A stretch of 64,000 nucleotides of DNA from Cetorhinus maximus. Taxonomy: Eukaryota. Positions 7,221 to 40,817 of this stretch are shown one piece after another (the first letter of the stretch is position 1; each line of letters begins with the position of its first letter). The notes under the pieces are model-generated. The model made no database searches, was not told where the DNA came from, and saw nothing but the letters and a program-made list of their open reading frames with translations. Location: contig NC_135906.1 in the NCBI RefSeq assembly GCF_964194155.1, positions 20,646,001-20,710,000 on the forward strand, read 5' to 3'. Both the position numbers and the translations under genes were made by a program.

Positions 7221-7637
7221 TAACAAGACTCGGTATGTTAAGTTAAATAATACCAAATATAAAATCAAGAGTGCGGTCTTGGAGATGCTGTAAAGGCCTT
7301 TTAGCCAGGCTTACAAAGAATCCCTTTGTACGGTGAGGCGGATGACTAAGAAGGGAACCACCTGAAGAGTTGAACTCACCCGACTGTAATGTCTGCATCT
7401 TCTGCAACAAAGGATCCTTTATAATCTCATTATATTGGCCATGAGTATATGTATCATTTAACTTTTAATAAAAATTTCAAGCATTTGACTCCATGTTAAT
7501 TTCATTCTTGTCCTATAGGCACAGGGCTGCAGTGGTTTGTCTATATTATTGCAAAATTCACATTCCTAACAACAAAGCAAGGAAAATCTACTATGCAAGA
7601 AAAAGCTGCAGCAAATAAATTTTAACAATGATCAAAA

Positions 7638-11465: not shown

Positions 11466-11509
11466 TTACTGGTAGTACAGCTCCAGGTTCATTCCATCAT
11501 GGATCTCAT
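11466..11509 (-). CDS. UBL5: UBL5/Hub1 copy A, last coding exon ((Y)EIHDGMNLELYYQ*)
   Basis: Minus strand gccttaaccaggctgctttcag|ATGAGATCCATGATGGAATGAACCTGGAGCTGTACTACCAGTAA; C-terminal YYQ typical of UBL5. Confidence 0.96.
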
Positions 11510-11599
11510 CTGAAAGCAGCCTGGTTAAGGCGTATAAATGCTTAGAATGCACAGGCTGCATTAAGGTGTCCAATTAAATCCTAACCTGAATGCTAGGAG

Positions 11600-12480
11600 G
11601 CAAAAAGTTGTCAATGGGTTTGAATCTGGTTTGCAAGTGGCTACTGTTCCACAGAGATTGATGTTAGGAATTTTGCTATTTACAACTGGTATTAATAACC
11701 TGCTTTAAGAGTTGGGGAGATGATCCACAGGTTTTCAGAATTTACAAATTATGTGCGAGTATTAAAACTGAGAGAATCCTCAATTCCTGCAAACAGCGGA
11801 ATTTGTTGGAGAAATGGTCCAACAATTGGCAAATAGCATTTAATTTAAAAATATAATGTTATGCATGCAAACAAGTCTCATGCTAAATACGTGCACAATG
11901 TGCAGTGAACAGATTAGAGGCCATTGGTGAAAGAAAAGGAGCTGGGTGTTAAGAACATCACTCTCAAAATGATCATGGTCAAGTATAATGCTGCAGTTTC
12001 AAAACAAGCAAGATCTAGGCTCTATTCACATGATAATTTACCAAGATAAAATGTTTCCCTTGTACAAGATGTGGGTTAGACCTCCTTTAGAATATTGGCT
12101 CCAGTGTTGATTTTCCAATAATATGGTTGGGTAGCAGGAAAAGATGCAGAGAAGAGCCACAAGAGCATTATCCGGATTAAAATATCTTCATCACCCAAAC
12201 AAGCTCATCAGTCTATATACTGTAGAAAAGTTAGAGACTCTGGTAATTGGATCAAGGTTTAGAAAATAACGAAGGAGCTGGATTGCATTTACATGGACTG
12301 GGGTCACACTTATAAGCTATGCCATGGCAGGACTAGACTTGATGTTAGGCAGCATTTCTATTCCCAGAGACTAATTGAACAGGCCCTTGGCTGGTGAACA
12401 GGTCATCTCATTCAAGGGTTGGATATCCTACAACAAAGTGTCAACACAATTTCTTGTGACTAGTTTCAACCATCTAAAGT
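11600..12480 (+). mobile_element. Old, heavily decayed CR1-like RT fragment in UBL5 intron
   Basis: Residual RT-like order of motifs; no open frame. Confidence 0.5.
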
Positions 12481-13482
12481 GCTCAGAGAGAAATAGTCTG
12501 GATATTTTTTCCTCTAATTGGCCCGTTAATCCTTTTTATGCATCTCCCAGGAGACTATGTGGATCCAGGGTGAATAAGGTAGCATAATGCATCACAACGA
12601 TATGCAGCAGGCCAGATAGAAACAGTGGATAGAAGGAATAAAATCTCTGACATCTGGCAGAACGGTCCCAAGTGAATGGTTACAGATATAGTCTCAACTG
12701 AGTTCCTATTAGACTAAGTCAAGCAAAATTGTGCTTAATTTGACGGCAATTGGTAGTCTTCAAGAAGTCAGGAGGCGGCTGGTACAGGAAAGAGGAGTTG
12801 CATTCAGATTTGGGAAGGGTGAAAAGGGGAGGAAGGAGGTCACACTTAAAAGACTTACTCTGCATTTGGTCCATTCAGTACTCAAAGCCAAAAGCAAACC
12901 TAAAGTAAAGGTTCTATCCCATCCTTCATGTTACTCAACCTTGAAATCTACTGTAACCAGACAAACAAATTTTTTCCCTATAAATCACCCTTTGGACAGG
13001 TGCGTGGGCAGGTGCACAAGGACAATTGTTTCTATGGTATGAAACAGGAGCAGCTACCTTCCAATAGGTGCAATTCTTCCTTAAAGTCATGGTTAAAATT
13101 ACCCTTGTTGATGGGAGAATAGTTTGCCAATACACTCTGCTCCCAAGACTTTACCTGTGCTCATCAATATGCATCTCTATTCAATAACCACAAAATGTTC
13201 TACACTTGCGTGTGGACCATGAGTCTTCACTGTGGGATCTTGACCTCCCTAGGGTTCTGAAGTCAGCAGATTACACTCTCTGTATTTTTGACTTGCAAAT
13301 GTTGCAAACTAATAGGAAAAAAAAAATCTTTGTTCAGCAATATTTTCCTTTTGTAGACAAGCTTCTAGAAGTTAGAACAGGGTAGTGTAAGGAGTGTCTA
13401 AGTATTTTCTTATCCCTTCTGCCCCCATTCATACAGAAAAGGCTGGAAGCTATTGGCATAGTTTTATAACATCAAAAGATAC

Positions 13483-13520
13483 AATCTTGCAACTGAACGT
13501 GATTCTTGAAGATGGTATAC
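13483..13520 (-). CDS. UBL5: UBL5 copy A, coding exon 3 ((W)YTIFKNHVQLQD(Y))
   Basis: ttccag|GTATACCATC...CAAGATT|gtatctttt; 38 nt, phases fit. Confidence 0.95.
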
Positions 13521-13893
13521 CTGGAATCAGAACAAGTTAAATTAGAACAAATAATCCACTGGGACATTACAAGATGATGCTTCCAATTTCCACACAAGGA
13601 CCAAAATGCTGAAAAGTTACAATCCACACACGTGGAATGAAATTCTTTTTACATCGAGATAAATTCAATAAATATCTGCCCAATTTAATTTTTTTTTGCA
13701 AAAGGTGATTAGCATTCTAGATAAGCACATTAAACAAGTAGGAGGATATGCTGATAGGGTTAGATGAAGCAAACAACGAGAGGAGGCTCATCTGAAGCCC
13801 AGGTGTATGCCGGAGTTTGTTTCTGTGCTGCAAATTCTATGTAATTCAGGAAATTAGTGCCACTAAGCTATATAAGAGAACATAAGAACAAAC

Positions 13894-13977
13894 CATTTCT
13901 TTAGGACGAGCTTGTCCCATTTTGTTCCAGTCTGCGCAGCTATCAATTTCTTCAGGTCTTTTATGCTATCATCAGGA
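13894..13977 (-). CDS. UBL5: UBL5 copy A, coding exon 2 ((N)[27 protein letters not shown](W))
   Basis: ttccttaatttctgcctccag|TCCTGAT...AAATG|gtttgt; 84 nt. Confidence 0.96.
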
Positions 13978-14329
13978 CTGGAGGCAGAAATTAAGGAAAA
14001 AGAAGTCTCCAAGTTCGTGCCATTCTGTTTTTACTGCTCATGTGGCCTACTTTTGTAAAGTCGTAAAGTACATTCTGTGTGACTGTTACCATAGTGCATT
14101 ATCCCCCTTCACCTTCACTGCAGCTTCAGACAGTGCGGACCACACCATCCAGTTTAGGCCTTTATTCATTTAAGACAGGAGCAACCAAACCTTTTGCTTA
14201 GCTGAAAAAAAAGGCAGAGCCTCAAACACCACAGATTTGTATAACAAGCTGCAGTTCTGACACCCCAAAACATTTTGTTTCCAATTTTCACTCAATTATA
14301 ACTAATAATTTTGGGCTAATAAGATAACC

Positions 14330-17300
14330 ACCCCATCACACCCCAGTCAGAGAAGAGTGGACCTGCAGGAAACAGTCAGGAGCTGAGGTGGGCCTATAAA
14401 TACAGACCAGAGATTCGAGTGAGGCCTACCTTACTGGGAGTTGGAGCGGAGCTGAGGAGCGCGCGCTGTTTCAGCTGCAGTGAGGATGTTGCAGCAGTGG
14501 GACGCGGGAGCTTTTGGATGCCAAGGCGATCCATGGCAAACACATCTGCAGGAAGTCTAAGCAGCTTGAGGAATTTGGGATCAGAATTATTAATCTGGAA
14601 GCCAAAAAGCAGACACTGCACATCATAAGGGAGGTGGAGAAATATCTAGATACTTTGTTCCAGATGACAGTCACACCTCTTAGAAGCGGGTCATCTGTTT
14701 TGGTCAGCAGGATGTGACTGTCAATGAGGCAGGTAATGGGACAGAGCAGGCAGTAGTGGAGGAGCCTCAGACTTTGCAATTGTCAAACAGGTTTGAGGTA
14801 CTCACAACCTGTGTGGATGAAAGTGAGATCTGCAAGGTGGACGAGCTGACTGGCCATGGCACTGTGGCATAGGAAGCCATTCAAGCAGGGGGAGCAAGAA
14901 GGAATGTAGTGGCAGTAGCGGGTAAACACTGTTCTCTGCAGTAAGGAGAGTGAGAGTCTAGATGGCTATGTTGCCTGCCCGGTGCCAGGATTTGGGACAT
15001 CTGCTCAGGGCTGGAGGGAACTTGCAGTGGGAGAGGCAGGATTCAGTTGTCGTGGTCCATTTAGGTACCAGTGACAGGTAGAATCGGGAAGAGATTCTGC
15101 AAAGTCAGCATGAAGAGCTAGATACCAAATTAAGAAGCAGAACCTCAAAGGTAGCAATCTCTGGATTATTACCTGAGTCACGTACAAATTGACATAGGGC
15201 AAATAAAATTAGAGAAGTGAATGTGTGGCTGAAAGACTGGTGAGGGAGAAGCGGGTTCCGGTTTGTGGGGCACTTGCATCAGTACTGGGGAAAGTGGGGG
15301 TGTGCCGTTGGGACGGTTTACACCTGAACCATGCTGGGACAAGTGTCCTCACAAATCACAAAACTAGTGAAGTCAAGGGGGTTGAGGGTTAAGCTTGGGT
15401 AGAAGTAGCAATTTAAGGAGTAGAGTCAAGACAGGGGAGGGAAATAGTAATGAGAAATGAGGGTCAGTGAATGGTAGGAAGGGATAGAGAAAAAAATCTA
15501 AGAACACATCAACAGTCAAGACTAGACATTACAAAGGTAACAAAAAGACAAAACCGAAGGCTCTCTATCTGAATGCACGTAACATTCATTTACTTTCTTA
15601 TGAATGCATGGCCCACATTGAAGTAAATAAATATGATCTGATAGCAATTACGGAGACATGGATGTAGGACGACATAGATTGGGTCCTTAATATTGAAGCG
15701 TACATGGCTTTCAAGAAGAATAGGAAGCTTGGAAAAGGTGGAGGGACAACACTGTTAATCAAAGAGGGCATTGATGCAATAGTTAGAGATGACCTTGGTT
15801 CAGGAGATCAGGATGTAGAATCGGTTTGTTTGAAGATGAGGAATAGTAGGGGAAAAAAGTCATTAGTGGGAGTGGTCTACAGGCCCCCTAACAGTAACCA
15901 CGGTGTAGGACAAAGTATTCAAGAGAAAATATTGTGTGCTTGCAATAAAGGGATAATAATAACCATGGATGATTTTAATCTACATATAAGCTGGAAAAAT
16001 CAGACTGGCAGTAGTAGCTGGGATGAGTTCATAAAATGCTTTCAAGATAGTTTCTGGGACCAACCAGACAGCAGGTTATATTAGACTTGGTATTGTGTAT
16101 TGTGACAGGATTAATTAATGACCTCAGGGTAAAGGCACCTCTAGGTAGCAGTGGTCACAACATGCTTGAATTTTACATTCAGTTTGAAAGGGTGAAGTAT
16201 GAATCTAAGACTAGTATCTTAAACTTAAATAAGGGCAACTATGTGGGGACAAAAGCTGAGCTAGCTGAAGTGAACTGGGAAACTAGGCTAGAGGAAAGAT
16301 CAGTAGAGAATCAGTGGCAGACATTTAAGGGGATATTTCAGAGTATTCAGAATAAGTACATTCCTATTCTAAAGAAAAATTCTAAAGGGAGAACCCATCA
16401 TCCATAGTTAACTAAAAAAGTTAAGGAAAGCATCAAACTTAAGGAAAAAGCATACAACTCCGCAAAGATGAGTGTCGGGACAAATGATTTGGTCAGAATA
16501 TAAAGAATAGAAAGGAATGACTAAAAGGCTAATCAGGAGAAAGAAATTAGAGTAGGAGGGGAAGCTAGTTAGAAATCTAAAGACAGATAGCAAGAGTTTT
16601 TACAGGTATTTAAAAAAGAAAAGAATAAGTAATGTGAGTGTTGGTCCTCTAGAGAGTGACAATGGAGAGTTAATAGTAGATAATAAGGAAACGGCAGATG
16701 AAATGAACCAACATTTTGCTCTGTGTTCACTACAGAAGATACAAAAAACATTCCAGTAATAGATGCAAAGTAGCAAATATAATCCCTCTATTCAAGGGGG
16801 GAAATAGGCCAGTTGGCTTGATGTCTGTCATGGGGGAGTTGTTAGAATCGATCATTAAGGAGGTTTTAGCTGGGTACTGAGAAGAGCTCAAGGCAATTGG
16901 AAAGAGTCAGCATGGTTTTGTGAAAGGAAAATCATGTTTAACCAATTTATTGGAGTTTTTTTGAAGGTGTAACACGCACGGTGGATAAAGGGGAGCCTGT
17001 GGACATACTGTACTTGGGTTTCCAGAAGGCATTTGATAAGGGGTTACATCAAGGTTATTAGGAAAAATAAAAGCACATGGTGTAGGGGGTAACATGGGGT
17101 ATGGATAGAAGATTGGCTGGCTGGCAGAATGCAGAGTATGCATAAATGGGTCTTTTTCTGATTGGCAGGATGTGATGAGTGGAGACCCACAGGGATCTGT
17201 GCTGGGGTCTCAGCTTTTCACGATTTACATCAATGACTTAGACAACGGGAGTGGAGACATGGTAGCTAAATTTCTAGATGACACAAAGATAGGTAGGAAA

Positions 17301-18180
17301 GTGTGTTGTGAAGACGACATGAGGAGGTTGCAGATGGATATAGAAAGGTTGAGTGAGTGGGCAAAGATCTGGAAAATGGTGTTTAATGTGGCAAAATGTG
17401 AAGTTGTTCACTTTGACAGGAAGGACAAAAAAAAACAGTATTACTTAAATGGTGAACAGCTGCATAATTCTGAGGTGCGAAGGGATCTAGGTGTTCCAGT
17501 ACATGAGTCACAAATAGTATGCAGATGCAGCAAGTAGTTAAGAAGGCTAATGGAATGCTATCCTTTATTACGAGAGGGATTGAACATAAAAGTAAGGATG
17601 TTATGCTTCAGTTATATAGGGCATTGGTTAGACTGCATTTCAAATAGTGCGCGCAGTTTTGGTCTCCTTACTTAAGGAAGGATGTAAATGCGTTGGAGGC
17701 GGTTCAGAGGAGGTTTACTAGATTGATACCTGGAATGAGTGGGTTGTCTTATGGGGAACGGTTGGACAGACTGGGTTTGTTTCCACTGGCGTTTAGAAGA
17801 GTGAGGGGCGATTTGATTGAAGTTTCCAAGATCCTGAACAGCCTTGACAAGGTGGACGTTGAAAGGATGTTTCCTCTTGTGGGTGAGTCCAGAATTAGGG
17901 GTCACTGTTTTAAAGTTAGGGCAGATGAAGAGGATTTTTTTCTCTCAGAGGACTGTGCAACTTTAGAACTCTCTGTCTCAGAAGGTGGTGGAGGTGGGGT
18001 CATTGAATATTTTTAAGGCACAGGTAGATTGATTCCCTTGCCTAATCAGAGTCTAAGATTATCGGGGGTAGATGGAAATGTGGAAATCAAAACAGAAGTA
18101 GATCAGCCATGATCTTATTGAATGGCGGAGCAGGATCGAGGGGCCGAATGGTCTACACCTGTTCCTATTTCTTATGTTCT
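14330..18180 (+). mobile_element. Near full-length decayed CR1 LINE within UBL5 intron (antisense to UBL5)
   Basis: ORF1 remnants, APE endonuclease (VYRPPNS), RT (QGSVLGSQLFTIYINDL, FLDDTK) and 3' tail, with many stops and frameshifts. Confidence 0.92.
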
Positions 18181-18307
18181 AATAATTATAACTAATTATA
18201 TAGCCCATAATCAACAGTTAAGAAACCAACAGAAGAGTTCACTTAATGGCTGTAAATATTCCAATTAAAAAGACAGTAATGTTGCACTACCCATCTTAAA
18301 AGGATAC

Positions 18308-18363
18308 TTGCACTTCACTCGGACTTTCTTTCCTAAACGATCGTTGCAAATTATCTCAATCAT
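18308..18363 (-). CDS. UBL5: UBL5 copy A, coding exon 1 (MIEIICNDRLGKKVRVKC(N))
   Basis: ATGATTGAGATAATTTGCAACGATCGT...TGCAA|gtatcctttt. The four exons sum to 56+84+38+44=222 nt, i.e. 73 aa plus stop. Confidence 0.97.
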
Positions 18364-18949
18364 TCTTAGGAATTCCTAGGAAGATGGGAGGAAGAAAAAA
18401 AATGATGTGCTTAAAAGAAAGCTTAACAATGCAACTTTGCAGAACGCAGTGCAGAACCAAAGTACCATATCTACACGAACGTTAGAAAATTATTAAAGAG
18501 CTGTGATCCGGAACCCGATGTCTGCAAGCTTGTTGGAAGCAGATTCAATGGTAACTGCCAAAGAGAATTGGATAAATATTTCAAGTGAAGTGAAGCATGA
18601 ACAGGGCTATAGGGAAAGAGGAGAGACACAAGTTAGACAATTTCAAATAGCTAGCAAAGGTACGATAGGCCAAATGACCTTCCTCTGTACCATGCCATGG
18701 TTCTATTAGAATGCAAGGACATCCACATTTTGATCTTCACTGTATCTAAAGTCCAATACTGCCAGAGGAATAAAGTCCAATTTACAATATGGGCAAGTTT
18801 AGTCATATTTAAGCTATCATTTCCATTACATGGTCCAGTATCAAAATCGATTTGGACGCTGTAGGTGGGAGCACCGGAACGTTCCCCTGATTAGAAACCC
18901 CAGAGTGGGACTTTAACCTCCAGTCTGTTGAAATAAACTCCAGAAACAA

Positions 18950-19740
18950 CTGGCCATATAAATACTGTGGCTACAAGAGCAAGTCAGAGGCTAGAAATTC
19001 TGCAGCAAGTAACTCACCTCCTGACTCCCCAAAGCCTGTCCACCATCTACAAGGCACAAGTCAGGGGTGTGATGGAATACTCCCCACTTGCCTGGATGAG
19101 TGCAGCTCCAACAACACAAGAAGCTTGACATCATAAACAAAAACAGAATTACCTGGAAAAACTCAGCAGGTCTGGCAGCATCGGTGGAGAAGAAATCAGT
19201 TAACGTTTCGAGTCCTCATGACCCTTCGGCAGGTCATGAGGACTCGAAACGTTAACTGATTTCTTCTCCACCGATGCTGCCAGACCTGCTGAGTTTTTCC
19301 AGGTAATTCTGTTTTTGTTTTGGATTTCCAGCATCCGCAGTAGCTTTTAGCTTTTTGTTTTTATTTAAGCTTGACATCATCCAGGACAAAGCAGCCCACT
19401 TGATTGGCACCCCATCCACAAACATTCACTCCCTCCACCACTGACGCACAGTAGCAGCAGTGTGTGTACCATCTACAAGATGTATTGCAGGAACTCACCA
19501 AGGCTCCTTAGACAGCACCTTCCAAACCCACAACCACTACCATCTAGAAGGACAAGGGCCACTCACCAACCTGACTTGGAAATATATCACCGTTAGTTCA
19601 CTGTCGCTGGGTAAACACGTGGAACTCCCTCCCTAACAGCACAGTACATACACCACAGGGACTGCAGCGGTTCAAGAAGGCAGCGCACCACCACCTTCTG
19701 AAGGGCAATTAGGGATGGGCAACAAACACTGGCTATACCA
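18950..19740 (+). mobile_element. Non-LTR retrotransposon 3' fragment (L2/Jockey-like RT C-terminus)
   Basis: Matches 21090-21915; interrupted by a Penelope-derived insertion. Confidence 0.75.
19135..19366. mobile_element. Penelope-derived inverted-repeat insertion with 14-bp TSD
   Basis: Arms 19135-19223 and 19232-19320 are reverse complements; flanked by aagcttgacatcat at 19121 and 19367; absent in copy B. Confidence 0.88.
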
Positions 19741-20201
19741 ACAACACCCATATACACACAAGAAAAAACAGAAGGTGGTAGGGGTCTGGAAGTCACTACC
19801 TAGGAGGAAAGTGGAGGGAGAAACCCTCATCATGTTGCCACTTGAAATGCCTGAACCTACAAGGCTATGGACCAAGAGCTGGAAGGGGGTGGGGATGAGA
19901 CTGGATGGCTCTTTTTTCAGCTAGTACCAGCAAGATGGGCCAAACAGCCTCCGTTTCTGCTCCAGACCTTCAATCATCCATTCATTTTAACGAAATATCA
20001 AAATGAATGATCATTAATGCACCCGGGGCCCTGAATTCTCCAGCTGCCCAGACCACAAGTCCTCGGGATTTAATTAACATGCGCAGGAGGTCGTAGAAAA
20101 TCAGGCAGCTGTTTATTTACTGACAGTTTGTTGTATTTTCGAACATGTAAAGTCCCAGCTCACACTCGGGGACCGTTTATATCGGCGACATCTTCACTTA
20201 C

Positions 20202-21089
20202 CTGCTCACCTCCCCCCCCCCACGATTACTCAGGATCTCTTCCGCGCAGCAACATAACTAGGCCGCAGCCCCGCCCCTTAGCAACGGGTCCCTCCTCTGA
20301 TTGACGGCTCTCTTGGCCAATCACACCTCGGGAAAGCCAAGAAAGCGGTGCCATCGTCGCCTAGCGGACCAATAGGACCTCGGGGTAAAGAAACACCCGC
20401 CCCTTTCGCCCATTTAGAATCAGAGCAGCAATTTCTCGAAACAAAAACGTTTTAAAAAAAAAGCTTGCAACGCTTCATGTTGGTTAGATAATCTTAAAAT
20501 AAGATTTGCCGGTAAAATCATGTATTTTCGATGGTAGGAAAGCGAGATTACGGAACTCTCGCATGGTTGTCAATGCAAATAGCACAAGACATATAAATGC
20601 AGCTTTTTTTCTGTTTTCTTTCATGTCTTAATAGCCGCAATAATTTGTTTTAAGGGCGATAATACGATGGTTTTTCATATCCGAATCAGCGAACCTGAAT
20701 AAGTTGCTATCAAATATTTGGACGATTCGGGCCGAGCTGTGCTGCCCTCTTGACCAATCGGCGTATGGAACTCATGACTGACGTTTCCGGTTGTCCAATC
20801 GAAGCAAGGTATTAGCCCGAGGAGGCGGGCCTGATCTCAGGACCAATTGGGCGGGCTTACCAGGCAGTCTTGTTTTTGTTTTGGTCAGATCGCATGTCAA
20901 CGGCACGGAGGCGGGGACCTGCTCGCGACCGACATCGGGGTTGGCCAATCCCTCTCGGCGCTCTCGAACGGAGCCCTGATTGACGCGCGGATTACCCAAT
21001 CCGAATGGAGACCGTTGAAGGTGGCCTCCCAGCCCACGCCCCGCTCTTGGTTAGGGGTTATCTCCGTCCGGCTCATTCGACAAGAACCA
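20202..21089. promoter_or_regulatory. Duplicated bidirectional UBL5/PIN1 promoter, including probable non-coding UBL5 exon 1; PIN1 side orphaned
   Basis: CpG-rich; several CCAAT/ATTGG, GC boxes and TGACGT; minus-strand donor cag|gtaagt at 20201; homologous to 49041-49914. Confidence 0.8.
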
Positions 21090-21915
21090 CATTAACTGCT
21101 GTGGTTACAGGAGCAGGTCAGGGATTTGGGAATTCTACAGCGAGTCACTCACCTCCTGACTCCCCCCCCCCCCACCAAAGCCTGTCCACCATCTACAAGG
21201 CACAAGTCAGGAGTGTGATGGAATACTCTCCACTTGCCTGGATGAGTGCAGCTCCCACAACACTCAAGAAGCTCAACACCATCCAGGACAAAGCAGCCTG
21301 TTTGATTGACACCCCATCCACAAACATTCACTCCCTCCACCACCGACGCACAGTCGCAACAGTGTGTACCATCTACAAGATGCACTGCAGGAACTCACCA
21401 AGGCTCCTTAGACAGCACCTTCCAAATTCATGACCACCACCATCTAGAAGGACAAGGGCAGCAGACAGATGGGAACACCACCACCTGGAAGTTCCCCTCC
21501 AAGCCACTCACCATCCTGCCTTGGAAATATATCCCCATTCCCGCCATCCTGCCTTGGAAATATATTTCACCCCTCTCCTAACTATGCTTCAGTTCTGCCG
21601 AAGGGCTGTGAAGGCTTGAAACGTTAACTGATTTCTTCTCCACCGATGCTGCCAGACCTGCTGAGTTTTTCCAGGTAATTCTGTTTTTGTTTTGGAAATA
21701 TATCACCGTTCCCACCATCCTGACTTGGAAATATATCGGCCGTTCCTTCACTGTGCCGGGTCAAAATCCTGGAACTCCCTCCCTAACAACACTGTGACTG
21801 TACCATGGTTCAAGATGGCGGCTCAGCGCAACCTTCTCGGGGGCAATTAGGGATGGGCAACAAACGCTAACTGAGCCCGCGATTCCCACATCTTGTGAAA
21901 GAATTTTTTTAAATG
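21090..21915 (+). mobile_element. Non-LTR retrotransposon 3' fragment (L2/Jockey-like) with a nested Penelope tail at about 21590-21693
   Basis: LSTIYKAQVRSVMEYSPLAWMSAAPTTLKKL RT C-terminus; tail gggcaattagggatgggcaa shared with the SINE. Confidence 0.8.
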
Positions 21916-22109
21916 ATGAATAAGATACCTGAGGACATTGTGTTCAAGTGATTCGATGCCATTTGTTTCAACCCAAGTTGCATTCTTCCATTGTATAATT
22001 ACAGCCATAACAGATGGAACCTTCACAATAGCAGCAATATTCCTGATAGGAACAGTGAAATGTCCTGGGTTTATAACCATATCTACTAATATTAATTCAT
22101 CTCCATCAT

Positions 22110-25100
22110 ACAGACAGGCTCTAACGTTACTCCTTATCCAAGTGAATAGCACGTTTAGTGAGGTGGTTACACCGCAGGTGAAGATTACACAGGCTGAAAA
22201 GGAATGGGTGACCATCAGGAACAGTAAAAGACTCAGGAAGGTAGCGCAGGAGTCCCCTGTGGTCATCCCCCTCTCTAAGAGATATACCGCTTTGGCAGTT
22301 CTGATGAAGAGTCATTCGGACTCGAAACGTTAACTGTATTCCTCTCCGCAGATGCTGTCAGACCTGCTGAGTTTTTCCAGGTATTTTTGTTTTTGTTTTA
22401 CCGCTTTGGATACTATTTGAGGGGATGGCCTCTCAGGGGAAAGCAGCAACAGCCAAGTTCACGGCACCATGGGTGGCTCTGCTGCTCAGAATGGCAGGAG
22501 GAAAACAGGTGGCAGGGCTATAGTGATAGGGGATTCAGTAGTTAGGGGCATAGACAGACACTTCTGTGGCCGCAAACATGAATCAAGGATGGTATGTTGC
22601 TTCCCTGGTGCCAGGGTCCAAGATGTCACGGAGCGGCTGCAGGACGTTCTGGGGAGGGAAGGTAAACAGCCAGTGGTCGTGGTACACATTGGTACCAACG
22701 ACATAGGTAAACTAAGGGATGAGGACCTGCAAGCTCATTACAGGGAGTTAGGAGATAAATTAAAATGCAGGACCTCAAATGTAGTAATCTCAGGATTACT
22801 CCCAGTTCCACGTGCTAGCGAGAGCAGGAATAAGAGGATAGACCAAATGAACACGTGGCTGGAGAGATGGTGTAGCCGGGAGGGATTCAGATTCTTGAGG
22901 CACTGGGACCGGTTCTGGGGAAGGTGAGACCTGTACAAACTGGACGGGCTGCACCCAGGCAGAGCTGGGACCAGTGTCCTTGCAGGGGCTTTTGCTAGTT
23001 CTGTTGGGGAGTATTTAAACTAGTGTGGCAGGGGGATGGGATCCCGGGAGTAGGATCAGATAGGTCAGATTCAGATCAGAAAAATGGAGGTGGACCATTA
23101 GCTAGGGATGTTATGATAGACATGGAGTTACAGGAGAAGCAAAGTTTAAAAAGTGTCCAGCAAGGGAAATTGACAGGGTTAAACTGTTTGTACTTCAATG
23201 CAAGGAGTATTACAAACAAGGTAGATGAATTAAGGGCACAGGTAGACACATGGCAGCAGGATGTCATTGCTATAACGGAGACCTGGCTAAAGGAGGGACA
23301 AAACTGGCAGCTAAATATCCCTGGTTATAGAGTCTTCAGACACAATAGAGTAGGAGATAAAAAAGGAGGGGGGTAGCACTAATGGTTAAAGAATCAATTC
23401 CAGTTGTGAGAAGGGATGATATACTAAATGGGTCAACAAACGAGGCTTTATGGATTGAGCTTAGAAATAAAAAAGGGGCAGTCACACTACTGGGAGTATA
23501 CTACAGACCCCCAAATAGTGAAAGGGAGATAGAAGAACAAATACATAGGCAAATTTCTGCTTGTAAGAACAAGAGGGCAATAATAGTAGGAGACTTCAAC
23601 CATCCTAATATCAACTGGGATTCAAACAATATAGGGGGCACTGAGGGAGAAAAATTCATGCAGTGTGTCCAGGAAAGTTTTTCAACCAATTAGTGTCAAA
23701 CCCAACGAGAGGAGATGCAATTCTAGACCTAGTCTTGGGGAACGAAGAAGGGCAAGTGGGTGAAGTGACAGTTGGCGACCATATCGGGGACAGTGATCAC
23801 AATTCAGTTAGATTTAGCATTACCATGGAAAAGGACAGAGATAAGGCAGGAGTAAAAGTCTTGAACTGGGGGAAGGCAAATTTTGCAGAAAAGAGAAGGG
23901 ACTTGGCTGAGGTGGACTGGACAGCACTGCTGGAGGATAAAACAATGGAAAACCAGTGGGAAGCACTAAAAAGCGAGATTCTAATTGTACAAAGTAGACA
24001 TGACCCCTACAAAAATAAGAGTGGTACTGCCAAATCTAGACCCCCCTGGTTGTCTAGAGGAATACAGGGGAAGATCAAACAGAAAAAGAAAGCGTACAAC
24101 AGGCACAAAGAACTAAGCACTGCAGATAGCCTAGACGAATATAGGAAGTGCAGGGACGAAGTAAAAAAGGAAATAAGGAAATCAAAGAGAGGGCATGAAA
24201 AAAGATTAGCAAGTAAAGTTAAAGATAACCCAAAGATGTTTTACCAATACATTAATGCTAAAAGATTAGTTAAGGAAAAAGTGGGACCTATCAGAGATGA
24301 AGATGGAAACTTGTGTGTAGATGCAGAGGCTGTGGGAAGGGTTTTGAATGAATATTTTGTCTCCGTGTTTACAAAAGAAAGGGAGGATGTAGATATAGTA
24401 GTCCAGAAGGAACATTGCGAGATATTTGACGGGATAGTTATAAAGAGAGAGGAAGTACTCGAAGGGTTGAAATCCTTGAAAGTTGATAAGTCACCAGGGC
24501 CAGATGGATTGTTTCCGAGGCTGCTGAAGGAAGTCAGGGAGGAGATAGCAGATGCTCTGAGGATGATTTTCCAATATTCACTAGATACAGGGGAGGTACC
24601 GGAGGACTGGAGAAATGCAAACGTAGTTCCATTGTTTAAAAAGGGATCAAAGGAAATGCCAAACAATTATAGGCCAGTGAGTCTTACATCGGTGGTGAGC
24701 AAATGAGTAGAATCAATCCTGCGAGATAGGATTAACTGTCATGTGGAAAGGCATGGACTAGTCAGGGATGGTCAGCATGGATTTGTTAAAGGAAGGTCTT
24801 GCCTCACAAATTTGATTGAATTCTTTGAGGAAGTGACAAGAAGAATTGATGAAGGTAGTGCAGTGGATGTTGTGTACATGGATTTTAGCAAGGCATTTGA
24901 CAAGGTCCCACATGGCAGATTGGTCAGGAAAGTAAAAGCCCATGGGATTCAGGGTAATGTGGCAAACTGGATAAAAAGTTGGCTTTGTAACAGGAAACAA
25001 AGGGTAATGGTCGATGGATGCCCTTGCGAATGGAAAGTTGTCTCAAGTGGTGTTCCACATGGCTCAGTGTTGGGACCCTTGCTGTTTGTGTTATATATTA

Positions 25101-26065
25101 ACGATTTGGACGTGAACGTGAGGGGCACGATTGGGAAATTTGCAGATGACACAAAGATTGACCGAGTAGTGGATAGTGTAGAGGATAGCCATAATCTCCA
25201 AAACGATATAGATGGGTTGGTGGAGTGGGCGGTAAAGTGGCAGATGGATTTTAACATAGAGAAATGTGAGGTCATACATTTAAGGAGGTCAAACAGTTAC
25301 AGGGATTACATAATAAATGGGAATATACTAAGAGGAGTAGATGAAGTGAGAGATCTTGGCGTACAAGTACACAGGTCCCTGAAGGCAGCAGTTCAAGTAG
25401 ACAAGGTTGTAAAGAAGGCATATGGAATGCTCTCCTTCATTGGCAGAGATATAGAATATAAAAGTAAGGATATAATGTTGGAACTGTATAAAACATTGGT
25501 GAGGCCACAACTGGAGTATTGTGTGCAGTTCTGGTCACCACATGACAGGAAGGACGTAATAGCTCTGGAGAGAGTACAGAGGAGGTTTACAAGAATGTTG
25601 CCAGGGTTAGGAAAGTGTAGCTACGAGGAGAAATTAGATAGGTTGGGGTTATTTTCCTTAGAGCAAAGAAGGCTGAGAGGTGACTTGATTGAGGTGTACA
25701 AAATTATGAGGGGAATAGATAGAGTGGATAGGGTAAAATTGTTTCCCTTGATGGAGAATTCTAGAACCAGGGGACATAGATTCAAGATAAGTGGCAGAAG
25801 GTATCGGGGGGACATGAGGAAGAACTTTTTTACATAGAGGGTAGTGGGTGTCTGGAATTCGCTGCCCAAGTTGGTGGTAAGGGGCAGAAACTTTAAATTC
25901 TTTTAAAAAGTACCTGGATCTGCACCTAAAGTGCTGTAAGCTGCAGGGCTGTGGGCCGGGTGCAGGAAGGTGGGATTAGAAAGGGCACCTGGGTGTCCTC
26001 GGGCTGGCATGGAAAAGATGGGCCGAGTGGCCTCCTTCTGTGCTGTAACTTTTCTATGGTTCTAA
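22110..26065 (+). mobile_element. Relatively young, near full-length CR1 LINE (SGNH-esterase ORF1, APE-RT ORF2; few lesions)
   Basis: GDSVVR...VVHIGTND; FNARSI, ITETWL, YYRPPNS, VGDFNHP, SDHN; QHGFVKGRSCLTNL, FADDTK; tail ttctatggttcta. Confidence 0.95.
22296..22336 (+). ncRNA. Minimal type I hammerhead ribozyme motif (Penelope-type)
   Basis: cagtt-CTGATGA-a-gagtc-attcg-gactc-GAAA-cgtt-aactg: stem I cagtt/aactg, stem II gagtc/gactc, palindromic ACGT as stem III. Lies in a 103-bp insert (22296-22398) with TSD taccgctttgg. Confidence 0.75.
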
Positions 26066-26572
26066 GTAAATGAAGATGTTCAAACTCTACAATAAAGAGA
26101 TGGCACAACCCACACACCACCATGTCTGGGAAAGCAAAATAAACCCAGAGGGAAAAAGCTCTGAAATTCCGACACAGTCCCTGAAAACGATCAAGTGAGC
26201 TCCAGAAGCCCTCAATAGCTCACATCAATCATTTTCCGTTATCTCTCACGTTCCTTATAGCATTTGTTTTTATTTATTCTTTCTTTATTTCTATTCCAAA
26301 GCCAGAAAAATAAGAAGCAGATTATACTTTCTGTACTTGTGACCCACTAAATGTTGCATTCTTAAAAAAGCCTTGGTTCCGCGATATTTTTCTTTGAGTT
26401 GTTGCTAAATATTTAGAAGTTAGAACAGGGTGTTATCAGGAGTGTGTAAGTATTTGCAATGGGTCTCAATTTTCTTTATTCTCTCATGGGATGTGAGTGT
26501 TGCCGGCAAGGCCAGCGTTTGTTGCCCATTCCTAATTTCCCTTGAACTGAGTGGCTTGTTAGGCCATTTCAG

Positions 26573-26920
26573 AGGTTAGCTTTACCCTATTGCTGATTGT
26601 TTCCTTGGCCTGGCATTGGCCGATTCCGGTGGGTGCAGGTTGCCATTAGATTCAGGGCTGGAGTGTGGCCAGGTGGGCAACACTTCCCTCCTGTTAATGC
26701 ACAGCATCTTCATGGGAATCCGGTGCTAAATTATTCATAAACGACCTGATTCTGGCTCAGGGTTTTGTACGTAGCTGAGCATTTATTTCGTTGGGATCTA
26801 TTGAAAGCCATCCCTCGAGCCACAGCTGTCAGTCCTAAGAGATAAGCAAATGCCATTCTGAAGGGATGGGCAACGGCCTCTGTTGTCCTCAGCCAATCGA
26901 ACGGGGCTCGGGTTCAGATA
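26573..26920 (+). pseudogene. Degenerate 28S rRNA fragment, copy B
   Basis: Duplicate of 374-720. Confidence 0.72.
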
Positions 26921-29376
26921 TAACTTGAGATATTGTCCAATTCCAAGAACTCATTCAACCCCAACTGGTGTCGCTATTCAAAATCACTTAAGTCAATAGA
27001 ATATAATTATATTAATCACAATTACTCACTAATACCTCAGGGGGTGGTGAACTTGTGGAGTTCTCTACCACAGAAGGCTGTGGAGGCCAAGTCACAGAAT
27101 ATAGATAGATATCTAGACTCTAAAGGTGTCAAGGGGTGTAGGGAGAGAGAGGGAGTACGACGTTGAGATAGAGGGTCAGTCATGATCATATTGAATGGTG
27201 GAGCGACTTCAAAGGGCTGAACGACCGACTCCTGCTCCTATTTTCCATGTTTCTAGGTTTAATTCTTTTAAACTGCTTATTTTGAGTTTTATCAATAAAA
27301 ACACTGGCTCTCTAACCGATGCACTGCCAGGTTAGTCTATACTTAGTTATCCTGAACTGGCTGAGCATTAACTCCAGGCTCCTTGTTATGAAAGAATCTT
27401 TTCATTTTGACTTATTGACATGCCGTGAAAGCTTGCAGTTGTCTCAAGCAGAACCCTCTGCCAGGCAGCATTGCCAATCTCACAGCAGCTTCCTTGGATT
27501 TGCTCTTGTTATTTTGAACCATTTCCATGCTGTTTCCTGTGCTGCACTGCAAACAGCCAGCAGACAGTCCTCACCTCGCCTTCGGTGGGATCTCAGGTAC
27601 GCTATAATAATTGAAATACTGATGATTTTTCTCCAAAGGTTCCCCAGTACACTCAGCAGCAAACAGTGGCTCGATATGAATCAGTGCGTATGAATATGAA
27701 TCTAGAAAATCAATACGTCTCTCAAGACTTGGGAGTGAGGTGTTAAGAGGAGAATAGCACTGTCCCAAGTGGAGTGGACCTCCTTGAAACTTTACGAAAA
27801 GACTTGTACCAGGTAATCAGTGTCTTTTTTTAATGGCTAACTTGTGCTTTTTGACATCAAATAACTGTGCTATTTAAAAGGAAGCAAAATTGTCCAAGTG
27901 ATTCTCAAAATGCTACAATGCATTGCCCCGAAGAGCAGTCAAAGCAGATTTAATATTAAATCTCGCAAGAGAATTAGATAAATACCAAAAATGAAAAAAA
28001 TCGCAGGGCTGTAAGGCAAGGATCAGGGCAGTTGGACGAATTGGATAGCTTTTTCAAAAAGCTGGCACAGGCATGATGGGCCGAATAGCCTCCTTCTGCA
28101 CTGTCTGATTCTACCACAATGTCCTCATTACATTTTAAAAACATTTCACACCATGTGTTAACGTTTGAAGAATCACTGTGCAGGCAAATGCTTCATCCCC
28201 TGTAACGGGTAAACTGTTTAAGCTACATTTTTGGAAATTGAATATCTCGAAACTACCACTGTGATTTTGTTAGCTTTTACAAGAAAATGAATATTCTATT
28301 TTCATTAGAGGGCACATTCACTCCAGGCTATAAATTATTTTCACACCTGATTAAGAAAAAAATTAATCATTTAAAATTTGCAAACACTTTTCTTAGCTTG
28401 AACTTAATTTATAGGACTTTACTTTCCAATCCACTTCTACATCAGGGCTTAGTCACAATGATATTCTACACTCTGAATACAATTAAACAGAGCTCATAAA
28501 TCATGTTGTGTTTTGTCATATTCTTTTGTCTAGCTAATCAAGCATTTTATTTAGCTTTCATTATTTCTGAAATCCTCTTATTAAAACTCAGTATATCGTA
28601 AGGAACCATACCATTCTGGAATTAATAATTCTGTGTTAGAATTACATTTACATTTTAACTCTAGGGAAATGGCTTCATATAGTTATCACAGCAATGATGT
28701 AAATGCAGTCTGAATCCAGAACCAAAGCTTTGAAGCAGGACATGACTCAGCTCAGGATTCAGAGCAAGTCTTGACTCTACATTTACACTTACCCATGTTT
28801 AACATTGCTGTGAAGCACAGACTGCGTAACACCCATGTTAAATTCTTGGAGGATAGTTCAATTTGAGACTCTCAGAAAACATCACTAAGAGTTGATTGGC
28901 CCCTGCTGTTGTGACGTTGTGGAGATTCAAACAGGAAAGGCTGAGGAGAAGATTGAAAATTCTGTGGACTCATAGATAGTCTGAGTTTCAAGGTAGTGGT
29001 GTAATATTTGCATTTCTGAACTAGGAACATTATTTGGTCTTTAAATGCAATCATCGTAATCCTTTTTGTTTGTTTTTAAACAGAAATTGGCCTAAAAGAT
29101 ACCAACAACAACTTGCGTTTATATAGCACTGCTAACGCACCGAAACCTTCCAAAGTGTTTCATAGGGTGTTATCAAAACATTTGGCACAAAACCAAATAA
29201 GGAGATAGAATCTTCAACAAAGACACTTTCTTCTCAAAGGTACAAAAGCCCAACAGGTTGCAACGCTTGAAGGAAAGAAAAAGTTAAATTTGTGAAGATT
29301 TAGAAACCTGATCACAACAGCTTGGGTTCAATTTATAATCTTGGCTTCTTGGGATACAAACAAATCCAAGAGAGAC

Positions 29377-30951
29377 ATGGCAGAGGTAGAAGATGGCAAG
29401 GGAATGATCACACAGGAATCAGAAGAATATCCAGTTGAAATATCCACTATTGAGTGTGAAAATCCAGATGCCCCAAATAAAGAGCAAGCTGGAGACCTCA
29501 CTATAGCCGAAGAAATAATCGAGAAGAATGAGGCAACTGAAGAAACAATGTTTATGGAGATGCAACAGGAAGAAGAGAACCGTGGTGAGACTACTGTTGA
29601 AGAACAAGTGACTGAAGGAAATGAAGATGCTGCAGGGAAAGGAGGGTTGGGTATCGAAACAAGAAATGAAAATGTGGAATCTGAACAGACCATCTCTGTA
29701 GAGACTGCAAAGGAACTTGAAGAAAACCTCCTCGAGGCCATAGGCAGCACTGATGTTGCACTTAAGGCAGGAGTATCTGATCGAAACTCATGTAAAAAAG
29801 AGCTGTCCAATGAAAACAAAAGTAAATCTGTAGAAGATGGTCAAAATAGGTTACAAGAATCAGAAGGCCAGGGCTGCAGAGAGGAGATTGAAGCATTAAC
29901 AGTAATGAAGGATATTGGACTTTCTACTACCCTGGAAGACACAATAGGAGAAAATGTTCAAGCGTCTGACGATTCCCAGGCACAATGTATAGATGTTGAA
30001 GAAAAGTTTGAAGCTACAGGAAATGCAGAAGAGAGTCAAAATGGTTCAGAAGGTGTGGCAGATACTCTGCTAAATATAGTAGCTGAGCCAGACTTCAAGG
30101 AGTCCTCTGACAACACAAATGAGGCTCCTGTCAGTGTGAACAGTGGTGACAGGCCAGAAGAATATTGCACAGATGCTGAATCGATTGCAGGGCAGATGGA
30201 GTTGTCTACACACACAGTTATTGATAATGGTTCGATGATGGCTAGCCACAACAATGGTAAATCAGGTAAAGGTGACATGTTGCTTAAGGAAGCGCAAGAA
30301 GGTGTGGCTGCAGCACATATGTGTCATGATCAAGAGCCACCAACAGGTGTTGAAACTGGACTAGAAGCACCAGCAGAAATAGCCAAAACTGATCTACAAA
30401 CAATGAAAAATACTGAGGCAGATTTAGAAATCCAAACCAAAGGTGTTGAAAGAATTCTAGAAACATCTGCCAAGCGTTTGGAAGAATGTCTGGATATTCC
30501 ACCAGTGCATGCTCCACCATGCTTGGGAAATCTTATGGAATGCCTAGATGTTTGGGATCAAAATCAGGACATATACTTCAAACCATCAGCAGAGAGAACA
30601 AGTGAAACTCCAGTTAACGTGGGAGATAATCCAACTGAAAAATTGGCAACAGAAGATGCTGAAGAACAAGCAACCTCAATTGATGCAGAACCCTCACAAG
30701 GCATACAAGATACAACAGTGACCAATACAATGGAAAATACAGAAGGACAAGATCCTAGTCTAGGCAATCTGGTCAAACCTGTGCAAGCCACAGAATTACC
30801 AACAACAGCACCTGGGGAGAGTGCAGAAGTCAGCAACACTAGTCTGCAACAACATTGTGAGGCAGGAATATCAGAGTCTGAGGATCAAGGCATACAAGAC
30901 CCAACAGCAGCAGCAGCGGACGATCAGATAATAGTAGCAGAGGAAGGATAG
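29377..30951 (+). CDS. Glu-rich protein (524 aa), copy B
   Basis: Open paralog of 3165-4742 with one in-frame 3-nt indel; upstream candidate acceptor AG reads AA. Confidence 0.65.
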   Translation: MAEVEDGKGMITQESEEYPVEISTIECENPDAPNKEQAGDLTIAEEIIEKNEATEETMFMEMQQEEENRGETTVEEQVTEGNEDAAGKGGLGIETRNENVESEQTISVETAKELEENLLEAIGSTDVALKAGVSDRNSCKKELSNENKSKSVEDGQNRLQESEGQGCREEIEALTVMKDIGLSTTLEDTIGENVQASDDSQAQCIDVEEKFEATGNAEESQNGSEGVADTLLNIVAEPDFKESSDNTNEAPVSVNSGDRPEEYCTDAESIAGQMELSTHTVIDNGSMMASHNNGKSGKGDMLLKEAQEGVAAAHMCHDQEPPTGVETGLEAPAEIAKTDLQTMKNTEADLEIQTKGVERILETSAKRLEECLDIPPVHAPPCLGNLMECLDVWDQNQDIYFKPSAERTSETPVNVGDNPTEKLATEDAEEQATSIDAEPSQGIQDTTVTNTMENTEGQDPSLGNLVKPVQATELPTTAPGESAEVSNTSLQQHCEAGISESEDQGIQDPTAAAADDQIIVAEEG

Positions 30952-33799
30952 GTAAATGATGTTCCTCTTCAGCCTTTGAAATATTTACTAATGAAATACA
31001 GTTGAAACTGAATCGGGATACAGTGCGTTTGTAAACCAGAACAAAACTTAAACAAGAACATTGCCAAATGCTTCCAATAACGCCACAAATTAACGGAAAA
31101 AGACAGTTTTCAGTTATAGCTCAGTACAGAATGACAAGCTGTCACTTGGGCTTGAACACCAATTGTACAAGAAGCAAACCTTTCAGATAGCTCCAGTGAG
31201 TTGCTAGAAAAAGGTACATAGTTTCCTATGTTACCAACATAATGGCCCGGATTTTACAATAGAAATAGTGGTGAGGTTATCTGTGCTCCCCGTCATTATG
31301 GAGTAAATCAGCTAGTAGTTTCTGGTGTCCGCACGTGTGCGGTTAAACATGGAGATCCTGAATTTGCTGTCTGATTTACCCTGCTCTGCCACAGACTCTG
31401 CTGCATGTTGTCAAGAGACATTGAAATACACAAAATGCATGAAGTTGCGATGCCAAACCACTAGTTACCCACTAAATAGGCCATTAAAAGTTAGGGCTGG
31501 TACATTCAGGATAATTGAATTTTTAAAAGCCTGCTAAGTCTTAATTAGCTCCAAACAGCCTCTCTGGCCCTGTAAGTGTAATTTTATAAGTGTGGAGTCT
31601 CAATTCTTCAGATTTTAACCATTGTTGGAGGTTTAAAAAACATTAAAATTAATTTTCACTTTCTATATGCGATTTTACATTGAATTAAAATATTCTCATT
31701 TCTATCTCCTGTTTTAGACTCTGCATTTCTCAGTGAGGATTCTTCAGTCTAATTGATTGACCATTTTGTTGCTTGCCCTGCTCTCTCACACACACCACAG
31801 ATGCCCTGCCAAGGGGATCACATTGAAAAGACTTGCTAAATAACTCAAATTACTGCTCAACAGCCTAAGAAAATTCTGTGGGCAGCGGGAAACATGATGG
31901 ACAGCAAGCACCATTCTTTTGCTGCTGACTGCAAAATCCAGGTCAACTTGTTCCACTCACCAGTAATGAACACTCAACTCCAGAACACAAAGCGACAATC
32001 AATCCCTCACCTCCAACCTTTTACTCCATCAAAAAGGTTTTTCTCTTGTTCTATTTAATCATCATACAACATATTGGATAGGGACATAGGAGCAGGAGTA
32101 GGCCTGCTCTGTCATTCGATAAGACCATGGCTGATGTGACTGTGGTCTCAACTCCACTTACATGTCTGACCCCCCACTCTCCACCTCCCCATAACCCTGG
32201 GCTCCCTTGTCCATCAAAAATCTGTCTAATTCAATCATGAATAAATTCAATGATCCAGCCTCCACTGCTTTCACGGAAGAGAATTCCACAGACTAACAAC
32301 CCTCAGAAAAAAAATTCTCCTCATCTCGGTTTTAAAAGGGAGAACTCTTATTTTTAAACTGTGTCCCCTAGTACTAGTCTCCCCCACAGAGGAAACATAC
32401 TCCCTGTGCCAAACCTCTCAGCATCTTATGTTTCAATGCCTCTCATGCTTCTGAACTGGATAGACAGCATTTCAGAAGTGTCTGTTTAAGTCACCAATCA
32501 TAAATATCAAGCCACACAGACATCATTAAAATGATTTTGTAGATTCCCTTCTTCTCCATATTCAGTTCCCAAGTTGAGCTACAGGCAGGTGAGAGCAAGT
32601 GGTAAAGTAACCTGGAAATAGACTGCCTGCTAACTTTCTCTGCTGGGGAGCAGTGCATATTACAGAGTGACAGGAACGTCAGTAAGAGATTAAGATTCAG
32701 CGACAGCTGAATGAAATAAATCACATTTCAAGTTCCCTTTAAGTTCCAGTTCTGTACTTAAATGTTAGGCTGAAGAAAACCAGCAAATGTCGCTGACAGG
32801 CAATATGTGTAAGGCTGTAATTGACATATAAAATAGTCTTAGCCCTAACTTTCTGATGGATGCATTTATATGTTTAATCTTTTCTGTACAATTAAATAGA
32901 TAAGTTACTTTATGTTGTATCCCAAGGCAATGCTGTAAAGCCTTTTTAAATCTGCAGAATATGGAAGCATAGTAGTTGTGTTCCTGGATTAGTAACCTTG
33001 AGGCCTGGAATAATGATTGAGTTATGAGATGAAATCCCACCTTGAAAGCTGGAATAATTAAATTTAATTAAATAAATAAATCTAAACTGAAAAGCTAGTC
33101 TCCGTAATGGTGACCAGGAAACTACTGGATTGTCGTAAAAACCCATCGAATTCATTAATGACTTTAGGAAAGGAAATCTGCCGTCCTTACCCAGTCTGGC
33201 CTATATGTAACCCCAGACCCACAGCAATGTGGTTAATTTAAGGACCCTCCGAAATGGCTCAGCAAGCCACTCAGTTGTTTTTGAGAAGGTAGCTCACCAG
33301 CACCTTCTCAAGGGCAATAAGGGAAGGACAATAAATGCTGGGCCTTGCCAGTGACATCCACAACCTATGAGTGAAATTTTAACAAGACTCGGTATGTTAA
33401 ATTAAATAATACCAGATATAAAATCAAGAGTGAGGTCTTGGAGGAGATGCTGTAAAGGCCTTTTAGCCAGGCTTACAAAGAATCCCTTTGTACGGTGAGG
33501 CGGATGATTAAGAAGGGAACCACCTGAAGAGTTGAACTCACCCGACTGTAATGTCTGCATCTTCTGCAACAAAGGATCCTTTATAATCTCATTATATTGG
33601 CCATGAGTATATGTATCATTTAACTTTTAATAAAAATTTCAAGCATTTGACTCCATGTTAATTTCATTCTTGTCCTATAGGCACAGGGCTGCAGTGGTTT
33701 GTCTATATTATTGCAAAATTCACATTCCTAACAACAAAGCAAGGAAAATCTACTATGCAAGAAAAAGCTGCTGCAAATAAATTTTAACAATGATCAACA

Positions 33800-37675: not shown

Positions 37676-37719
37676 TTATTGGTAGTACAGCTCCAGGTTC
37701 ATTCCATCATGGATCTCAT
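37676..37719 (-). CDS. UBL5: UBL5 copy B, last coding exon
   Basis: Same as copy A except synonymous CAG>CAA. Confidence 0.96.
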
Positions 37720-40322: not shown

Positions 40323-40360
40323 AATCTTGCAACTGAACGTGATTCTTGAAGATGGTATAC
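40323..40360 (-). CDS. UBL5: UBL5 copy B, coding exon 3
   Basis: Identical to 13483-13520; splice sites intact. Confidence 0.95.
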
Positions 40361-40733
40361 CTGGAATCAGAACAAGTTGAATTAGAACAAATAATCCACT
40401 GGGACATTACAGGATGATGCTTCCAATTTCCCACAAGGACCAAAATGCTGAAAAGTTACAATCCTCACACATGGAATGAAATTCTTTTTACATCGAGATA
40501 AATTCAATAAACATCTGCCCAATTTAATTTTTTTTTTGCAAAAGGTGATTAGCATTCTAGATAAGCACATTAAATAAGTAGGAGGATATGCTGATAGGGT
40601 TAGATGAAGCAAACAATGAGAGGAGGCTCATCTGAAGCCCAGGTGTATGCCGGAGTTTGTTTCTGTGCTGCAAATTCTATGTAATTCAGGAAATTAGTGC
40701 CACTAAGCTATGTAAGAAAACATAAGAACAAAC

Positions 40734-40817
40734 CATTTCTTTAGGACGAGCTTGTCCCATTTTGTTCCAGTCTGCGCAGCTATCAATTTCTTCAGGTCTT
40801 TTATGCTATCATCAGGA
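40734..40817 (-). CDS. UBL5: UBL5 copy B, coding exon 2
   Basis: Identical to 13894-13977. Confidence 0.96.

Follow-up and report, generated by a model that had tools for sequence, protein, structure and literature searches.

Introduction

Microhomology-mediated tandem duplication junctions are known (MMEJ/MMBIR), and a transcription start site without a nearby splice donor usually gives a short unstable RNA. Rogers et al. (2017, PMC5460883) described, in the part of their paper available here, 43 'recruited non-coding sequence' tandem duplications from Drosophila yakuba, of which 15 lack the parental start codon and 30 show new transcription, 385 bp on average. In human, according to the accessible portions of two further studies, breakpoints are enriched at sites that are open in the germ line (Kaiser et al. 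2021, PMC8559717), and start sites expressed in testis show hypermutability together with suppressed CpG decay (Qiu et al. 2026, PMC13712754).

We analysed a stretch of 64,000 nucleotides, hereafter the window (G000:C29:20646001-20710000), from a shark genome of 4 Gb and compared it with its flanks (80 kb upstream and 40 kb downstream). A preliminary description of this DNA had proposed that a duplication broke exactly at the PIN1 start codon and left behind a promoter aimed at LINE sequence; as a whole, that interpretation is partly supported. We observed the duplication and its junction, the ancestry of the LINE found there, a single PIN1 gene, two intact copies of both UBL5 and a Glu-rich gene, retention of CpGs in the stranded promoter and, within it, a peak of 28% divergence. 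Among the listed matches to a literature search on UBL5, PIN1, duplication and shark, no paper treats this locus.

Results

A tandem duplication that breaks at the PIN1 start codon

The window contains a direct tandem segmental duplication, in which two colinear copies lie on the same strand and the end of copy A (1-21089, +) is joined to the start of copy B (21090-49914, +), which continues into the intact PIN1 gene. Comparison with the flanks gives a unit length of ~22.3 kb, since the true start of copy A lies ~1,220 bases (~1.2 kb) before the window, within an old LINE that we call U (G000:C29 ~20644635-20645290). When aligned, the two copies differ by 1,162 mismatches over 21,387 columns and by 15 indels of at least 30 bp. 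The same comparison identified the supposed spacer at 21090-26572 as the beginning of copy B: 21713-22143 is 94% identical to the sequence 801-373 bases before the window, and 26042-26575 is an 85% match to the next stretch of the upstream flank. The LINE fragment that copy A had been said to enter is therefore present, but not as a stray piece: copy B begins with it, and its homologue lies in the upstream flank.

The 18-mer ctcattcgacaagaacca, which ends in gacaagaaccA, occurs exactly twice in the window, at 21072-21089, where it is followed by cattaactgctg, and at 49897-49914, where, and only where, it is followed by TGGCTGAG. The last A common to both occurrences (21089 = 49914) is the A of the PIN1 ATG. 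At the junction (21087-21090, +), where PIN1 reads GACAAGAACCAT and the most frequent form of the LINE family reads GGACTAGCCATA (21/58 copies), CCA is common to the PIN1 start context (ACCA|TG) and to the LINE, whose family mostly has AGCCAT; the overlap becomes CCAT if the LINE had its family's commonest state. A short shared sequence and no long homology are thus found, as at a microhomology-mediated junction. Because of this CCA/CCAT microhomology, the break can be placed only to -3..+2 of the ATG, so that its position at the start codon is confirmed while the word 'exactly' has to be read as that interval.

The break could have fallen anywhere in the 14,751 bp that extend from the UBL5 promoter into PIN1, and since this interval has 248 CCA and 58 CCAT, microhomology gives a mechanism but does not explain the choice of the ATG. 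By our own arithmetic, the uniform chance of a break within ~6 bases of the ATG is ~4 in 10,000. We read this position as a by-product, since breaks favour open germline sites in human data and since any landmark would be noticed in a large scan.

A mis-join at 21089, which would have undone this picture, is unlikely, since run X1 yields a 395-bp contig (20803-21199, with 1 differing letter and 2 gaps) that spans the junction, reaching 286 letters into one flank and 110 into the other. Run X1 is possibly, even probably, the assembled sample and not an independent individual, so that its contig is stronger evidence against a mis-join than for fixation. This origin of X1 and the 200-N gap at 51478-51677 would be compatible with an assembly artefact, in which two haplotypes were set in tandem or wrongly joined; given the 5% divergence, the 15 large copy-specific indels and the contig over the junction, we consider the chance of an artefact next to negligible.

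The LINE at the junction descends from the upstream LINE

We aligned U and the junction LINE with 58 family copies, 29 of them nearest to the junction LINE and 29 nearest to U. The piece that follows the junction (21090-21140, +) carries, in 21099-21140, seven rare states, five of which are common to U while any of the 58 family copies has at most two; one of those shared with U is a 1-bp insertion present in 0/58 family copies. At the other end, where the LINE 3' end and unique sequence are paralogous to the upstream flank (21781-22143, +), 8 of the 9 rare states in 21781-21830 are again found in U. The middle (21141-21780, +) carries only 1 of 49 U rare states, has a median identity of 92-94% to other family copies versus 82-90% to U, and also contains a poly-C expansion and a short local duplication. 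A degenerate hammerhead-type element lies within it at ~21560-21696. The shared rare states argue for a join made directly into U, with the middle likely overwritten later by family-like sequence. Since U is absent from the best 40 genome matches to the 63 bases after the junction, this link rests on the shared rare states and not on overall identity. The first 48 LINE bases after the junction are over-diverged, 10/48 differing from U (p 1e-4).

The nearness of 21141-21780 to other family copies is what would be expected if a young LINE had landed at the PIN1 ATG and had then undergone unequal crossing-over with the LINE upstream, thereby making the duplication. Yet this scenario predicts the opposite of what is seen in the first 50 bp past the junction, whose ancestor is U itself, and the PIN1 side has no LINE with which a LINE-LINE crossing-over could have occurred. 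The insertion model is scarcely plausible and, judged by these sequence comparisons, appears largely refuted.

Two further candidates were discarded. A spread of CpGs into the downstream LINE was rejected, as 21099-21541 has 4 CpGs and none of the 58 family copies has fewer. A LINE reading frame accounts for the 149-aa frame at 20984-21433, which has no Pfam match and no ATG before 21218 and was not retained as a gene.

One PIN1 and two UBL5 genes

PIN1 (49914-64000, +) is intact, with exons at 49914-49971, 58941-59141 and 62271-62381 and a fourth exon ~3.7 kb past the end of the window; the four exons give 480 nt, 159 aa and one terminal stop, and the protein matches human PIN1 with E 9e-28. 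Exon 2 has one match in the genome and the promoter has two, and no remnant of exon 1 was found elsewhere within the window. The PIN1 dose is hence single, as had been anticipated, and the promoter and 5' UTR in copy A were indeed retained without any PIN1 codon. A C-rich minisatellite (50228-51477; its opposite strand is G-rich) was noted in PIN1 intron 1, where it runs into the 200-N assembly gap.

UBL5 is present on the opposite strand in both copies. Copy A (11466-20250, -), with coding exons at 18363-18308, 13977-13894, 13520-13483 and 11509-11466, is intact and encodes 73 aa; copy B (37676-49100, -) encodes an identical 73-aa protein with one synonymous nucleotide difference. The match to human UBL5 has E 2e-10. 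Two UBL5 introns (window 18307 and 13482, -, and their copy B paralogues) begin GTATCCTTT and GTATCTTTT and have a CCTTAA-type branch sequence before the acceptor, kept in both copies; we take these features to be the pattern of the minor (U12) spliceosome. In intron 1 of UBL5 A, two head-to-head hammerhead-type repeats, absent from copy B, form a long inverted repeat (19135-19324) that has sub-threshold matches to miRNA families. Outside the duplication, 28-46 kb upstream (G000:C29 ~20600000-20618000, + strand), we noticed exon-like frames (L009-L011) that presumably resemble the C1 and SH3 domains of a VAV-type gene.

The stranded promoter keeps its CpG island

The stranded PIN1 promoter and 5' UTR (20720-21089, +) have a CpG observed/expected ratio of 1.01, compared with 0.28 in the background, and contain motifs that we take to be CCAAT, GC-box and CRE-like elements. 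Over 20150-21089, 3 of the 61 CpGs of copy B read TpG or CpA in copy A, compared with 61/230 background CpGs (Fisher p 1e-4); restricted to the PIN1 half, the count is 3/27, which is not significant (p 0.10). The number of CpGs in 20720-21089 is 33 in A and 28 in B. The AT-rich spacer that joins the UBL5 and PIN1 islands also retains its CpGs, the whole forming one CpG-rich kilobase. With a ratio close to 1 and CpGs that, set against the paralogue, show no decay to TpG, the region resembles an unmethylated CpG island at the level of its composition.

It had been suggested that this promoter is kept open for UBL5 copy A, which fits the lack of methylation-type CpG decay and the CpG-rich kilobase held in common with the intact gene. 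As the island is shared, the stranded promoter is likely open, and UBL5 A may hold the whole CpG-rich kilobase open. Within copy A, both proximal CCAAT boxes retain their core and lose the strict NF-Y pattern, which we take to be RRCCAATSR, and 6 of the 15 CRE half-site positions differ between A and B.

A peak of divergence in the stranded promoter

Differences between A and B were counted by stretch from the UBL5 side up to the junction. They amount to 9/561 in 19700-20260, 25/241 in the UBL5 core promoter, 5/220 in the spacer, 17/140 in the distal PIN1 module, 54/191 (28%) in 20860-21067 (+) and 1/22 in the last bases, for a background of 976/19,709 (5%). No other gap-poor window in the duplicate reaches the 28% of this one, which is 5- to 6-fold over the rest and had gone unnoticed in the preliminary description; a second peak, at 7998-8298, was rejected as an indel-flanked patch. 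In 20860-21089 we counted 30 transversions and 25 transitions versus 348 and 628 in the background (p 0.006), and the differences favour G/C in A (26 vs 12, p 0.034, unpolarised).

Contigs of two related organisms follow copy A at ~94% identity up to ~20866 and not beyond, where a contig of run X20 (organism C, presumed RNA) continues for ~1,700 letters unlike copy A. Copy A is thus not ancestral-like beyond that point, and the excess of change may belong to every lineage and not to A alone, so that the peak is not fully polarised. Copy B equals the outgroup at 6/6 listed sites where A and B differ, which gives no polarisation since rows were listed only where A differs; outgroup letters cover 36/40 of these rows, and 177 further rows lie outside the list. 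The 2,117-nt X20 contig of organism C covers the whole PIN1 upstream region (20433-20866), which in this relative may reflect promoter-upstream transcription or a long leader, the contig itself carrying no start or strand information. For the window itself, no run recorded as RNA was listed as containing 19800-21100, a negative that says nothing about expression.

Over the 7 intervals with contigs from organism C, A and B differ at 114/4,158 positions (2.7%) and B and C at 185/4,170 (4.4%). The duplication therefore looks younger than the split from organism C, and too young to reach 28% through age alone. In organism C, a single contig of 2,225 bp spans the Glu-rich ORF without a break, at a depth like that of its neighbours, which suggests a single copy there. 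Several tracts are only ~0.4-1.6% apart between A and B, compared with 5% elsewhere (1033-1610, 3224-3568, 7320-7664 and 19700-20260); the first has 5 differences in 578 positions, and outgroups differ by 4-7% where checked. Such a pattern probably reflects gene conversion, and conversion in the interior means that the 5% background understates the age and blurs the clock.

If conversion homogenises the interior while the ends escape it, or if error-prone repair damaged both sides of the junction, the peak would be an edge effect to which promoter activity is irrelevant. Both junction sides are over-diverged (the 54/191 and the 10/48 given above) and conversion-like tracts lie in the interior, as this explanation would have it; however, the outermost 22 columns hold one mismatch, the UBL5 core promoter is also raised although it lies 600 bp inside, and the 4.4% distance to organism C, if C is single-copy, caps age-driven divergence far below 28%. 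We regard an edge effect as unlikely.

Selection, perhaps together with GC-biased conversion, could instead have remodelled the stranded half into an upstream element of UBL5 A or into a new promoter. The CCAAT-type cores are relatively spared (2/20 changed vs 52/171 for other positions, p 0.067), G/C is favoured in A, A has more CpGs than B, and the part of the literature on human fast-evolved regions available here gives a similar signature (PMC12687773). But these statistics are marginal and unpolarised, and bound motif cores could be spared through protection and not selection, which leaves remodelling quite improbable in our view. We rather favour mutation at an open start site: a germline promoter that is open and freed from selection for PIN1 likely mutates fast, and this reading fits in kind what the human testis start sites would lead one to expect.

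The path from the stranded promoter to the Glu-rich gene

Downstream of the junction, in the same sense, lie the LINE tail, a CR1 element, a hammerhead motif and the Glu-rich ORF of copy B, as announced by the preliminary description, except that the CR1 is truncated and broken and not near full-length. This 3.9-kb CR1 LINE (22144-26063, +) is present in copy B only; it has esterase and RT Pfam matches, is 5'-truncated inside ORF1, contains stops and frameshifts, and is flanked by a probable AAGT target-site duplication. Inside it lies a minimal hammerhead-like motif (~22297-22335, +) with CUGAUGA, a GAGUC/GACUC stem and GAAA, in line with what we take to be the hammerhead core consensus. The motif is putative: helix II is present, with a fold z of -1.96, and an Rfam search returned no hammerhead match for it. 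Upstream of the Glu-rich gene, both copies contain a piece of the 28S rRNA 3' end (374-630 and 26575-26830, +; Rfam LSU_rRNA_eukarya E 3.6e-5), 80% identical to the rDNA arrays.

The Glu-rich ORF is open in both copies, with 525 aa in A (3165-4742, +) and 524 aa in B (29377-30951, +), the only two copies in the genome. Orthologues occur in at least 6 named shark species and all named relatives are sharks, so that the gene is, as far as these matches go, shark-specific; 7 relatives in other genomes, at 46-59% identity, all have the same start Met. Pfam and the protein atlas gave no usable match for the protein. For the A/B pair, pN/pS is 0.55 (p 0.10, not significant), and 4.5 frameshifting indels are expected at the background rate whereas none was seen (P 0.011). 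A possible acceptor 18 nt before the ATG reads GATACAG in A (3146) and GATACAA in B (~29358), and a stronger acceptor-like site ~290 nt upstream (~29084 in B) is kept in both copies. Over 26580-31600, runs X20 and X24 (presumed RNA) cover the Glu-rich ORF of organism C thinly and in patches, with no informative splice joints, and a capture run, from another sample of the same species, gives sparse cover.

The stranded PIN1 promoter had also been proposed to give the Glu-rich copy B a housekeeping promoter. Such a capture would consist of a spliced transcript from the stranded promoter into Glu-rich B, which would be promoterless if its native first exon lies upstream of the unit. Promoter and ORF are on the same strand ~8 kb apart, and donor-like sites at 21672, 22175 and 27810 could be spliced to the acceptor-like site at ~29084; the ORF of B has stayed open, no CpG-island promoter was found in the unit upstream of it, the exact protein of B and not that of A is in the NCBI-derived protein collection, and B has 14 derived amino-acid changes compared with 7 in A (p 0.19). 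On the other hand, the PIN1 exon-1 donor lies outside copy A and is lost, and the first donor-like site, at 21672, is ~580 nt downstream behind 7 ATGs. Nine A[AT]TAAA hexamers (6 AATAAA and 3 ATTAAA) and the sense hammerhead motif stand before the ORF, and both proximal strict NF-Y sites are gone from A. Moreover, a native Glu-rich promoter may lie within the unit, and the absence of the A protein from the collection may be an annotation accident. With the donor lost and the ATGs, hexamers and hammerhead motif en route, a fusion to Glu-rich B is unlikely, the case for it is weak, and we judge capture distinctly improbable. A version that goes further is more doubtful still: the stranded promoter would be an accelerated lineage-specific element, 28% rewritten with its CCAAT cores and CpG island kept, and the sole promoter of a fast-evolving Glu-rich B, spliced across a dead CR1.

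Discussion

The account that we favour, with moderate confidence, is that of a ~22 kb tandem duplication made at microhomology, whose stranded promoter stays open through the UBL5 A island, fires only short unstable RNA and mutates fast. A break in an open promoter would have been repaired by microhomology-mediated joining or template switching, the ATG position being a by-product and not a target. The CpG island would be unmethylated in the germ line, and transcription or accessibility there would underlie both the divergence peak and the scars of later repair immediately downstream. The sense RNA would end early, as a short unstable non-coding transcript running into the LINE. The mechanism is ordinary; what is new here is that a stranded promoter which kept its CpG island has, locally, diverged 5- to 6-fold more than the rest.

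A promoter cut from its gene and kept open by a neighbour would be a natural control for the germline mutation rate of start sites without constraint from the gene itself, with the working twin 29 kb away serving as comparison. If copy A alone carries the 28%, the locus would provide a single-locus shark test of the start-site hypermutation known from human averages; if the stranded promoter also drives Glu-rich B, it would illustrate how a new gene comes under housekeeping control. Failing both, what remains is an ordinary scar of duplication, with PIN1 single and UBL5 doubled.

Three kinds of described element can be set beside particular parts of the locus. The junction is like those of MMEJ/MMBIR tandem duplications in its head-to-tail join, its 3-4 bp shared and the imperfect likeness of its flanks; unlike them, it is old and has mutated since, so that it does not single out one repair pathway. 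The hammerhead-like motif shares with the minimal hammerheads of Penelope-like elements, as given in the accessible part of that work (PMC6155905), a short core inside a dispersed repeat, with helix II present and helix III reduced or missing, but here it is a predicted passenger in a dead CR1, with no Rfam match. The germline promoter and TF-site hotspots of human, to the extent covered by the available text of both studies (PMC8559717; PMC13712754), resemble this locus in a break at an open promoter and in raised substitution near the start with suppressed CpG decay. Those human figures average rare variants over the whole genome, with breakpoints mostly of deletions, whereas here a single freed promoter, whose germline activity we infer, can be compared with its working twin.

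In structure, the locus would fit promoter capture by tandem duplication, a known class, as far as its sequence tells. As in the Drosophila cases, within what the available part of that paper describes (PMC5460883), a tandem duplication has put the 5' end of a gene beside unrelated sequence. Those cases are young polymorphisms with RNA data, whereas the present one, ~5% diverged, is found in a shark, and its stranded promoter has a CpG island in common with a second, fully duplicated gene.
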